Shown piece after piece: positions 61,120-63,586 of a DNA stretch of 64,000 nucleotides. Position 1 is the first letter of the stretch, and each line of letters begins with the position of its first letter. The translations under genes and the position numbers were made by a program. Origin of the DNA: a virus. Lineage: Duplodnaviria; Caudoviricetes. Below the pieces are notes generated by a model, which was not told where the DNA came from, did no database searches, and saw nothing but the letters and a program-made list of their open reading frames with translations. The stretch spans positions 771 to 64,770 of the IMG/VR virus record IMGVR_UViG_3300031718_000109; one strand, written 5' to 3'.

Positions 61120-62666
61120 CTAGAACGGCCAGGTACCGTTCCGAGCGTCATCCAACAGCGGGATGATCTTGAAGCTGGCGTCCGAGAGCCCACCGAACAC
61201 ATGCCGGTTGTCCTTACCCGACGGTGCCGAACCCATCCGATAACCAGCCAAGTTCCATGTCAACACCGGAACATCCTTCGGCACCGCCGCGTACACGTCA
61301 TGCGCCCCGTGGTACGCCGCCTGCTCATCCGTCAACACAATCACCCGGTCATGCGCCCGGTAATGCGACGCCACCGCCTGAGCCGTATACGTCCCACCCA
61401 ACGCGGTGAACTTCTCCACCAGCCGCAGCACCGAGTCCCCCTTACGGAACCCGACCTCCCGCGAGGAGGAGCCGAACTCCACCAGCGTCGCATTCGCCGC
61501 CCGCAACGCCAACGCGCTGCCGAACAGCGCCGCAGAATCCGCGCGGTTCAGCTGCGTCTTCTCCGACAGCCCACTGAACATAGACCCGGACCGGTCCACC
61601 AGGATCAACGTCCGGCCCGCAAGCTCCGGAACGTTCGCCAGCGACCTGTTCAGCGCCTGCTCCAACGGCCACGCCCACCGCAACCCAGCGTTCTTATACG
61701 CCGCCAGGAACCGGAACGGGAACTGCCGGGACGCCTTGATCTCCTCCGGATCCACCAGCTTACGGATCACCGCGTCAGCAGCGCCATGTACCCCATGGAA
61801 GGGATCATCTTCTCCCACGCCTGGGCGTCCATCTTGCCCTGCTTCCACCCAGCGGTAGCCTCCCACGTCATCCCGGCCGCGCGCAGCTTCTCCGCACCGT
61901 CCTCAGACGCCATCAGAGCGTCCTTGCCCGCCTGGTCCAGGCTGGTGAGCTCCTTGCGCGCGGTAACCGTCTTCAACCGCGCGGACGCCGGGTCCTCCAG
62001 ATCCTCACGCCCGTGACGCCGGTCAATAGCGTGCTCAAACAGATCCCCCTGCCACGGCTTGTCCGCATCCGGCGCCGGGTGCACCAGCTCAATCACGTCG
62101 CCGATGCGCACGGCGTCACCCTGCGAGTCATACTTCAGCAGGCTCCGCTCGTTCAGCAACCGGCGTACCGCGTCACCCACACCACGCTTCACCGGCTTCG
62201 GCAGCGCCTTGCCGTACTTACTGATCCAGTACGCCACCAGCTCCGCAGGCTCATCCGCCCGCTGGCACGCCACATCACACACCTTGCGAGACGGCCCGGT
62301 GTCCATCCCCGGGGTCTCCGGGACCTTCGCATCCAGGCGTGCCTTGACGAACTCCGCAGCAGCCACCAGGGAAGCCGAACGCATGTTCGCCTCCGCCCGC
62401 AGCCACGGAATCATCCGCATCACCCAGTCCGGGTCCTCCAGCGCGACCTGACGCACCAGCGCCTCAAACCGGCCGTCCCGATCCGACGCCGACTCATGGA
62501 AGGTGCTCTCGCCCACCATGTTGGTCACCGCAAGCAGAAACAGCTCACTCTTAGCGTCCCGGGCGAAACCCGGTGCCCCCAGCGCGGTACGGCCCGTGGC
62601 GGTGGTCTCCGTCTTCACCGGAGACGTCACCTGCGGCGTGACGGTACTGCGGTTGAACTTACTCAT
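61120..62666 (-). pseudogene. rsr: Ro60/TROVE-vWA RNA-binding protein, frameshifted near 61780
   Basis: TROVE half (RADEPAE, KPVKRG, MTWE, MGYMALL) and vWA half (RQFPFRF, LVDRSGSM, GGT, VLTDEQ, WNLAGY) are in different frames. Confidence 0.88.
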
Positions 62667-62702: not shown

Positions 62703-62849
62703 GGGATGGTGCCCGAGATCAAACCGGTGATCGCTTTAGCGCTCTGCCGCTGAGCTACGTGGGACGAGGCCCCACGATGGGATTCGAACCCATGACCTCT
62801 TCATTAGCAGTGAAGTAAGCGAATCACAACGCGCACCGGGCACCACCCC
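62703..62849 (-). ncRNA. Y RNA (YrlA-like) A with permuted tRNA module, GCT loop
   Basis: 5' GGTGCCCGGTGCG / 3' TTGATCTCGGGCACC; anticodon, T, closed acceptor and D arms. Confidence 0.85.
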
Positions 62850-62858
62850 GACGCTAAC

Positions 62859-62964
62859 CCTCCCGAGATCAAAACGGCTCCGGGGTTGTCTGCCCCACAA
62901 GGGAGCTGACCAGGAATCGAACCTGGGTAACCGAAGTACCCCGGAAAAACCACGCACCGGGAGG
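62859..62964 (-). ncRNA. Y RNA B with T arm and acceptor-like hairpin only
   Basis: 5' CCTCCCGGTGCG / 3' TTGATCTCGGGAGG; CCAGG-TTCGATT-CCTGG. Confidence 0.8.
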
Positions 62965-62980
62965 TGCTTAAAGCTTGGGG

Positions 62981-63113
62981 GGCGCCTGAGATCAAAGTGG
63001 ACTCGGGGTAGTGAACTCTAACGCCCTACCAGCTGGGCTATACGTCCCGGAGGACATAACAGGATTTGAACCTGCGACCTTTAGAAGGACCCGATTCCGG
63101 CACACCAGGCACC
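62981..63113 (-). ncRNA. Y RNA C with canonical YrlA-type architecture
   Basis: 5' GGTGCCTGGTGTG / 3' TTGATCTCAGGCGCC; T, closed acceptor and D arms; TTCTAA/TTAGAG connecting stem. Confidence 0.85.
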
Positions 63114-63128
63114 GCTGTCAAACTGAAG

Positions 63129-63270
63129 TCCCGCCAGAGATCAAATTGGAGAGCGTAACCGTATGTCCTAGGCCGCTGGACGACACCAACCTTACGGCTG
63201 GCGGCGGGATTCGAACCCGCGTTCCACCTGTTCAAAGAGGAAGGAGCGCTTTCCGGCGCACCTGGCGAGA
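63129..63270 (-). ncRNA. Y RNA D with permuted Glu/Gln-like tRNA module
   Basis: 5' TCTCGCCAGGTGCG / 3' TTGATCTCTGGCGGGA; D arm TCGTCCAGCGGCCTAGGAC; CTTTGAA loop. Confidence 0.85.
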
Positions 63271-63273
63271 TGA

Positions 63274-63426
63274 GCAGGTCTGACCAGAGGTCAGGGCGGA
63301 GAAAGCAACGTTGATGTGTTATCCAATTACACCACCCCTGCATGGGTGCAGGGGGCGGGGCTCGAACCCGCATCACCGGTTCCGTAGACCGAAGGAGCTT
63401 TTTCCTACGCACCTGGTCAGACCTAC
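63274..63426 (-). ncRNA. Y RNA E with permuted tRNA-Arg(ACG)-like module
   Basis: 5' AGGTCTGACCAGGTGCG / 3' CTGACCTCTGGTCAGACCT; TCGGT-CT ACG GA-ACCGG. Confidence 0.85.
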
Positions 63427-63446
63427 TATGCAGTTGTCAAAGATCG

Positions 63447-63527
63447 GCCAGCCAGAGATCAAGAACGGGCCTACGGCGTAGTTTCACCAAAAGAAGTAGC
63501 CGTCACGCCCTCACGCACCTGGCTGGC
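63447..63527 (-). ncRNA. Minimal Y RNA F (no tRNA module)
   Basis: 5' GCCAGCCAGGTGCG / 3' TTGATCTCTGGCTGGC; TACTTC motif. Confidence 0.75.
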
Positions 63528-63586
63528 GCACGTTGGTGAGCTGGGGTGCGGGTGACTCGGGGGTTCAACCCGCCCCCCTGCTCTGT

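Follow-up and report, generated by a model that had tools for sequence, protein, structure and literature searches.

The 64,000 nucleotides (nt) of viral DNA analysed here (the window; positions 771 to 64,770 of IMG/VR record IMGVR_UViG_3300031718_000109, Caudoviricetes) carry six tandem Y RNA genes (F, E, D, C, B, A) on the minus strand, upstream of a gene for Ro60 (Rsr) and on its strand. The question raised by this locus is whether the tRNA-like parts of these RNAs, which appear in permuted order, are genes for working tRNAs or mimics of another use. We consider it likely that A to F are Y RNAs of the YrlA/YrlB class, and that A and E are full tRNA mimics bound by Ro60 which keep an anticodon arm and do not decode. 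Any function proposed below for these Y RNAs is conditional, and their binding by Ro60, their processing, and their modification are predictions from the sequence.

The units begin with GGTG[CT]G and end with TTGATCTC (GGTGCG and TTGATCTC in A), the 3' end of E being the variant TGACCTCT, and in all six units both ends pair as a long terminal stem in the minimum free energy (MFE) fold. Y RNA A (62706-62846; minus strand, as for all features below) combines this Ro-site stem with a complete tRNA-like domain, delineated by motifs, MFE fold, Rfam, and RNAalifold: an anticodon-type arm (62799-62815; stem CTTCA/TGAAG, loop CTGCTAA) is followed by the variable loop AGGTC (62794-62798), the T arm (62777-62793), the acceptor 3' strand (62770-62776), a linker (62765-62769), the acceptor 5' strand (62758-62764, then TA), and the D arm (62741-62755). 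All seven acceptor pairs and all four D-stem pairs are formed, and the variable loop supplies a G15:C48 Levitt pair. Y RNA E (63276-63422) has the same plan, with the anticodon-type arm at 63376-63392 (stem TCGGT/ACCGG of 5 base pairs (bp), loop CTACGGA), the variable loop TGAT of 4 nt between this arm and the T arm (A15:T48 pair), the T arm at 63355-63371, the acceptor 3' strand at 63348-63354, the linker ACCCAT at 63342-63347, the acceptor 5' strand at 63335-63341 (then TG), and the D arm at 63316-63332, again with 7/7 acceptor and 4/4 D-stem pairs. In both RNAs the D arm contains GG and is followed by one further base before the strand returns to the Ro-side stem. The same linker, ACCCAT, also occurs in an unrelated Thermocatellispora unit (L143, around 2230; relatives are designated by locus numbers).

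An earlier note on this DNA had proposed for E the order anticodon arm, T arm, acceptor 3' strand, ACCCAT, acceptor 5' strand, and D arm, with which coordinates and pairing agree, and had re-joined A to a cloverleaf with a GCT loop, for which all tRNA elements are indeed found (5-bp/7-nt arm, AGGTC, T arm, 7-bp acceptor stem, and D arm). Its view of both RNAs as permuted, complete tRNA mimics is borne out, every element being present and the hairpin showing covariation, U33, purine-37, and the Levitt pair among relatives (see below). Concerning Y RNA D (63127-63270), the claimed Glu/Gln-type D arm is present (63165-63181, with a T arm at 63204-63220), whereas the claimed anticodon-type hairpin is degenerate, with only three of its five pairs when read in the tRNA register; D lacks the combination of 5-bp stem, 7-nt loop, U33, and purine-37 that A and E possess. 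A repeat of the beginning of the anticodon stem in the two bases after the D arm, likewise pointed out earlier, exists in A and E but is at chance level among related units (4 of 42, as compared to 7.8 expected by permutation).

Among the remaining units, C (62979-63114) shows the canonical YrlA layout with an open anticodon stem and only two of five pairs at the hairpin position. B (62856-62967) consists of a Ro-site stem and a T arm without a D arm, and F (63445-63527, beyond the coordinates of the earlier note) is short, with a Ro-site stem only and no tRNA-like part. The succession of T arm, sealed acceptor-like stem-loop, and D arm on an end-to-end stem is found in A, C, D, and E and is missing in B and F, which are YrlB-like. 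Counted from the Ro60 start at 62666, the Y RNA units are all found 40-860 bases upstream, on the same strand and within the 4 kb set for a YrlA. Several body types stand side by side in the array, with a Glu-like D arm in D, a GTGT-type D arm in E, and a GCTC-type D arm in A. The relative L009 holds an orthologue of E with an identical loop. In chromosomal homologues of D (L141 2188, L143 2335, L144 2186), the Glu-like body is combined with an intact 5-bp/7-nt hairpin, the loop of which reads CTCTCAA in one case, with CTC, a Glu anticodon.

The structure of A and E is above chance. When the 17 nt of the hairpin were shuffled, only 78 (E) and 63 (A) per 100,000 sequences reached 5 bp together with U33 and purine-37. 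The Rfam tRNA model, applied to the unpermuted stretch of arm, variable loop, and T arm, lays it out in A and E as exactly these three elements, with 28.3 bits for A and 24.5 for E at a cut-off of 29. Little weight is given to re-permutation: ARAGORN called the expected triplet in all 17 re-permuted hairpin-type units, whereas the seven units without a canonical hairpin gave no call (three), calls with odd loops (three), or a normal call (one), and in D another register was chosen (Phe/gaa). When only the 17-nt arm was shuffled, a normal tRNA was still called in 307/500 (E) and 261/500 (A) sequences; since ARAGORN accepts 52-61% of such versions, this test does not discriminate.

For comparison, 9 viral contigs whose Ro60 is related to that of the window at 50-74% identity, 5 named phages, and 15 actinobacterial chromosomal Ro60 loci were used, and a viral collection was scanned for TACTTC 18-24 bases ahead of the T-loop motif, which was found in at least 118 stretches; all survey figures refer to units among the matches listed. 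Units were accepted if the T stem was fully paired, if the acceptor stem was sealed (6/7 pairs or more, linker of at most 12 nt), and if a D arm was present as well as T[ACT]CTTC near the beginning of the hairpin. An earlier set of 55 units grew to 74 distinct units with the chromosomal loci, to which the window contributed 3, named phages 7, IMG/VR contigs 47, and bacterial contigs 17. A hairpin at tRNA spacing is fully paired in 40 of these, whereas 16 form four of the five pairs and 18 form fewer. Within the 56 units that have at least four pairs, U33 is found in 54, a purine at position 37 in 55, and A38 in 53, and the last base of the variable loop forms a Levitt pair with position 15 in 52 (G:C in 34, A:T in 18).

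In the set of 55 units, 80.9% of the hairpin cells are paired, as compared to 57.7% in shuffles and 36-46% in slid controls, and 61 changes on both sides contrast with 21.3 in shuffles, none of 500 shuffles reaching the observed value. This alignment consists of the 17-mers alone, with four hairpin-less rows out of register; a MAFFT alignment of arm, variable loop, and T arm was dropped on account of a gap at its start and a shifted register. The combination of 5 bp, U33, and purine-37 exists in 26 of the 55 units (shuffle mean 0.08, maximum 2 in 2000 shuffles). Furthermore, RNAalifold, applied unguided to eight full-length orthologous A-type units, returns the Ro-side stem, the 5-bp/7-nt hairpin, the T arm, the acceptor stem, and the D arm, with 20 of 38 pairs changed on both sides. 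The hairpin is selected, and covariation, U33, purine-37, and the Levitt pair mark it as an anticodon arm. The same design adjoins the chromosomal rsr genes of Microbispora, Planotetraspora, Nonomuraea, Streptomyces, and Actinomadura and is found in Caulobacter phage CcrColossus; in mycobacteriophage Cane17 it exists in a degenerate version with a hairpin of 3 bp.

Class-II variable arms have loops of 3-5 nt, which counts against the reading that the hairpin is only a variable-arm-like 'V' stem-loop with an incidental likeness to an anticodon arm, the Ro-side stem being the equivalent of the anticodon stem. This reading is improbable, although in the order of the chain the hairpin follows the Ro-side strand and precedes the T arm, which is the place of a class-II variable arm, although it bears the name V in Chen et al. 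2014 (PMC4201824, accessible text), and although the Ro-side stem is the anticodon stem in the Salmonella structure of Wang et al. 2018 (10.1101/312249, likewise as far as accessible). The loop has 7 nt with nearly invariant positions 33 and 37, a separate class-I variable loop of 4-5 nt follows the hairpin and ends in the base pairing with position 15, and the Rfam tRNA model aligns the hairpin as an anticodon arm. Because the Levitt pair is found in 52 of 56 units, the hairpin corresponds to tRNA positions 27-43 and not to the place of a variable arm. We equate the hairpin of the window units with the V stem-loop described by Chen et al., which is better read as an anticodon arm.

An anticodon arm need not decode, and a decoding tRNA should have an anticodon that is conserved among orthologues and matched to the identity of its body, which is not the case here. 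A-type orthologues beside Ro60, all with one body type, carry the triplets GCT, TGT, GTT, GCT, GAT, GTT, CTT, GCT, GCT, and TCT (L014 and L016 are one loop base apart), and the E-type D arm is combined with ACG (window and L009), CTG (L010), TTC (L034), or GTG (L049). Bacterial tRNA-Ser requires a long variable arm; A has the triplet GCT on a body with a variable loop of only 5 nt, by which an identity of A as tRNA-Ser is not supported. Neither is there a contiguous cloverleaf with free acceptor ends that scores at least 29 bits, the acceptor being sealed by a linker of 5-6 nt. When run over the window, ARAGORN found only the tRNAs of a cluster of 13 and called none of the Y RNAs. Arg, Ser, and Gln are missing from this cluster, as the earlier note had observed. 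Five further amino acids (Glu, His, Lys, Thr, and Trp) have no tRNA there either; with eight amino acids lacking a tRNA in a fragmentary record (around 53% complete), the gaps carry no weight. The idea that the Y RNA anticodons fill these gaps is not supported, the triplet changing between orthologues on the same body. Among homologues, positions 34 and 35 of the loop vary, whereas 33, 37, and 38 are kept.

In placing the 3' half first and bridging the acceptor ends by a linker, the window RNAs follow the order of permuted tRNA genes. To our knowledge, no permuted-tRNA pathway of the algal or archaeal type exists in bacteria. Transcripts of permuted tRNA genes are circularised and their linker is opened, giving working tRNAs of conserved identity. 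In the window RNAs, on the contrary, the ends run into a stem of the Ro60-binding type at position 26/27 and the 'anticodon' drifts, although 3' half first and acceptor-end linker are shared with the cases from red algae and an archaeon cited in 10.1101/312249 (accessible part). According to the available text of PMC4201824, YrlA of Mycobacterium smegmatis, whose 7-bp acceptor stem is likewise sealed by a loop, is cut by RNase P in vitro and exists in vivo as halves of 82 nt and 65 nt with a CCA end, both bound by Rsr. By analogy, a nicked (split) form of the window RNAs is plausible.

It is nevertheless very improbable that E (giving Arg-ACG), A, and D (giving others) are permuted genes whose transcripts become functional tRNAs, be it through circularisation and ligation or as two-piece molecules in translation. 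All parts of a tRNA are present, E combines ACG with a D loop of the A20 type, an A as discriminator, and CC behind the acceptor strand, and the nicking and CCA end of M. smegmatis YrlA would fit such a course. The triplets, however, differ among orthologues on one body, the E-type D arm also occurring with TTC, GTG, and CTG, A lacks the long variable arm that GCT would demand, and no known bacterial pathway removes the Ro-site stem at 26/27. Maturation into ligated tRNAs, as envisaged by the earlier note, finds no counterpart in the 64.8-kb record, a fragment, in which neither a gene for RtcB nor one for a CCA-adding enzyme was found. An encoded CCA (linker beginning with N-CC, or CCA at positions 2-4) is found in 5 of 55 units, about as expected by chance, and the best match to re-permuted A, D, and E among the 425 ARAGORN tRNAs in the fetched loci is around 65-79% identical, such that no recent capture from a donor tRNA is visible. 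These Y RNAs are probably neither decoders nor tRNA precursors. ACCA follows the acceptor 3' strand in the E-type unit of L009 (3307-3330), a point in favour of a precursor, and also in unit 1 of CcrColossus (L022, around 1211-1225).

The resemblance is close enough to mislead annotation. In native context, ARAGORN called a tRNA in 12 of the 55 units, and the mis-called 5' halves consist of Ro-site strand, anticodon-type arm, T arm, and acceptor 3' strand. Two GenBank phage records are affected: the tRNA-Arg(tct) annotated in Gordonia phage VanLee (L019, 2204-2275) and the tRNA-Gln annotated in Caulobacter phage CcrColossus (L022, 1152-1219) are each the 5' half of a Y RNA unit. Tools for tRNA detection thus take 5' halves of Y RNAs for tRNAs, by which phage tRNA counts are inflated.

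Concerning the loop itself, nine groups of units with identical stems differ at position 34 in eight groups and at position 35 in all nine, whereas position 33 never varies and position 38 does so in two. Positions 36-38 read TAA in 31, GGA in 14, CAA in 4, and otherwise in 7 of the 56 units, i.e., TAA or GGA in 45, with 34-35 changing freely. In a purely descriptive comparison with the real tRNAs of the same loci (n = 416), TAA at these positions is found in 55% of the Y RNA loops and 34% (143/416) of the tRNAs, GGA in 25% and 6%, A at position 36 in 4% and 21%, and C at position 36 in 9% and 20%, respectively. GG at 36-37 is a determinant of TrmD. A structure paper of 2026 (PMC13276492) gives, in its accessible part, 36-UAA-38 as the strict determinant of t6A37; the contacts of bacterial TsaBD are confined to the anticodon loop and to three pairs of the D stem (G10:C25, C11:G24, and U12:A23), with positions 34 and 35 in non-specific pockets. 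TAA at 36-38 together with a D stem of G10:C25, C11:G24, and U12:A23 would coincide with this set of TsaBD determinants; the corresponding GCTC/GAGC D stem is found in 27 of the 31 TAA units and, as a qualification of this match, is common to YrlAs generally.

One may go further and suppose that the loops are built for the essential enzymes acting on position 37 (TsaBD on TAA, TrmD on GG at 36-37), that some of these RNAs are aminoacylated (E, in view of its ACG, A20-type D loop, and discriminator A), and that Ro60 would in this way be tethered to, or report on, the machinery of tRNA modification and charging or the ribosome, with the different body types addressing different tRNA families; as a whole, this extension is doubtful. 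Unlikely, if less so, is that the exposed loops act as decoys or baits, which would soak up or sense host enzymes directed against tRNAs (anticodon nucleases of the VapC/MazF type or modification enzymes), such that phage or host tRNAs would be protected or damage would be signalled to Ro60 and its partners. The conserved loop framework with variable positions 34-35 and the presence of several body types side by side in arrays are in keeping with decoys, and actinobacterial hosts are rich in anticodon nucleases, which phage tRNAs have been proposed to evade (PMC10264068). In the accessible text of that paper, however, 'y rna' and 'decoy' have 0 occurrences each, the link being our own inference; no nuclease recognition site was matched, and the same design next to chromosomal rsr genes is not specific to phages.

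All units thus possess a terminal stem that carries the conserved Ro-site motif pair, and in A and E the top of this stem opens into a five-helix junction with a whole permuted tRNA, in the order anticodon-type arm, class-I variable loop, T arm, linker-sealed acceptor stem, and D arm. Under the preferred reading, that of Ro60-bound mimics, these RNAs would be handled by tRNA enzymes of the host. The hairpin would be the retained anticodon arm of the upstream tRNA in an ancestral tandem pair, in accordance with the dimeric-tRNA origin model that is discussed, together with the analogy to permuted tRNA genes, in 10.1101/312249 (accessible part): arm, variable loop, T arm, and acceptor 3' strand would derive from the first tRNA, the second having supplied the acceptor 5' strand and the D arm. 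In unit 3 of VanLee (L019), the 5' end (2203-2229) resembles the inner acceptor 5' strand and D arm of the same unit (2280-2311), with a score of 22, which 33 of 2000 shuffles attained, their mean being 13.9; this likeness is no more than suggestive and may be a relic of a tRNA dimer. CcrColossus possesses two more Y RNA units (L022, 1640-1960) with class-II Leu-like D arms (GGCGGA...), which indicates that Y RNA arrays can mimic several tRNA classes within one phage.

The Ro60 gene of the window (61120-62666, start at 62666) consists of two overlapping frames, a TROVE part (61767-62666, 299 amino acids) and a vWA part (61120-61866, 248 amino acids). The former matches genes annotated as 'Ro-like RNA binding protein' in phages of Streptomyces, Gordonia, and Arthrobacter with 39-49% identity (tblastn), and the second frame matches Pfam VWA_2, TROVE, and vWA_Ro60, in each case under the curated cut-off. 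In the closest relative, L009, Ro60 is a single open reading frame (ORF) of 549 amino acids. Where the frames overlap (61767-61866), a DNA contig of a sister strain (run X2) contains around 49 extra bases at around 61776-61783, with flanks free of differences on both sides; as 49 is 1 modulo 3, the insertion would fuse both frames, and the split reflects a deletion particular to this strain or else a fault of the assembly. The split gene and the degenerate hairpin of D would be expected if the array were what is left of tandem tRNA genes, without function and in decay. With compensatory changes found in every helix among distant phages and bacteria, and with the design preserved from actinophages to a Caulobacter phage, this is extremely unlikely.

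Several observations weigh against Ro60-bound mimics with a selected anticodon arm. The survey was seeded by TACTTC, only exact duplicates were removed, and the counts ignore relatedness among units. The hairpin is missing in 18 of the 74 units, including the unit at the position of A in L012 and unit C of the window. The Rfam YrlA model (RF02553) gives 34.4 bits for C, 33.2 for A, and 24.3 for E, all below the gathering cut-off of 69 (29-47 bits in relatives), and Ro60 itself is split in the window. Selection by enzymes need not account for the excess of TAA and GGA, which could go back to a few ancestors, and TAA is also found in real tRNAs of the same loci (143/416). Finally, the Ro-side stem of Salmonella YrlA fills the position of the anticodon stem (10.1101/312249, accessible part), which leaves the packing of a fifth helix unexplained.

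With regard to the surroundings of the array, the record of 64,770 bases, nearly all of which is covered by the window, is classed as linear and estimated to be 53% complete in IMG/VR. Among ten neighbouring ORFs, PHROGs matches comprise RNase H, a family labelled RNase E, terminase, and unknowns, and in a comparison of the whole array with named phages at the DNA level no match was obtained, in either near or distant mode. Spacers between Y RNA units (window 63424-63440 and 63122-63135; L010-L017, L018) repeat a motif around ACAACTTCA / TTGACAACTG, which may serve as a promoter element or mark a site of processing. A scan for sigma-70 promoters and for terminators yielded 0 promoter-like and 2 terminator-like sites, inside the shuffle expectation. 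In many units (L010, L014-L017, L019, L009), a conserved CTACGT follows the D arm and mirrors YTAC of the 5' strand; by analogy to the UA of the Salmonella structure, both may form a kinked junction. In a soil metatranscriptome library (X3), contigs match relatives of A/B (window 62754-63002; 22 differences, 7 gaps) and of F (window 63404-63573; 9 differences). At around 88-95% likeness these contigs stem from relatives, and as they are assembled and may include carried-over DNA, they hint only weakly at transcription of such arrays in soil.

The organisation found here is most similar to YrlA (RF02553), as defined by Chen et al. (PMC4201824): the genes neighbour Ro60 on the same strand, and Ro-site stem, T arm, sealed acceptor stem, and D arm follow in the same order. 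Many YrlA members possess, according to the accessible text of that paper, a V stem-loop upstream of the T arm and a YUAY motif; both are found in the window, TACTTC including YUAY. Where the same paper gives GNCGAAN0-1G as the 5' motif, the window units show GGTG[CT]G paired with TTGATCTC, and the Cane17 units a GGCCGA-type sequence. Despite this general similarity, there are several differences. Salmonella YrlA 'lacks the anticodon loop' (10.1101/312249, accessible part), whereas the window hairpin is a full 5-bp/7-nt arm with its own class-I variable loop. The D and T arms of YrlAs are described as nearly invariant in what is accessible of the published accounts, whereas several tRNA-like body types are found here; up to six units stand in tandem, and the Rfam scores remain under the cut-off. 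Yrn1 of Deinococcus radiodurans, also a Y RNA with a potential 'anticodon arm' on a 5-bp stem, differs in its loop of 6 nt, in the other orientation of this arm between T- and D-like arms, and in the absence of a V arm (PMC4201824, as accessible).

Outside the Y RNAs, the permuted order has a bacterial parallel. Two-piece tmRNA, encoded by permuted ssrA, is a tRNA mimic that is opened at the acceptor end by processing; it differs from the present RNAs in the lack of an anticodon arm, in its mRNA-like part, in being charged with alanine, and in having no link to Ro60. A literature search for YrlA together with anticodon or variable arm retrieved only PMC4201824, 10.1101/312249, and reviews, and the figures of Chen et al. 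may draw the arm in an anticodon-like manner. New here are the full anticodon-arm geometry and conserved bases of the V element, in this lineage and widely in Y RNAs of actinobacteria and their phages as well as of some other phages, the class-I variable loop of its own behind the arm, and the several tRNA-like body types per array.

In the accessible parts of both studies, YrlA has so far been presented as a tRNA mimic without an anticodon loop. If most YrlAs of actinobacteria and phages bear a selected arm that matches the determinants of t6A37 or m1G37, the search for partners would narrow to readers of D stem and anticodon loop. At the sequence level, the design moreover lends support to an origin of Y RNAs from dimeric tRNAs.

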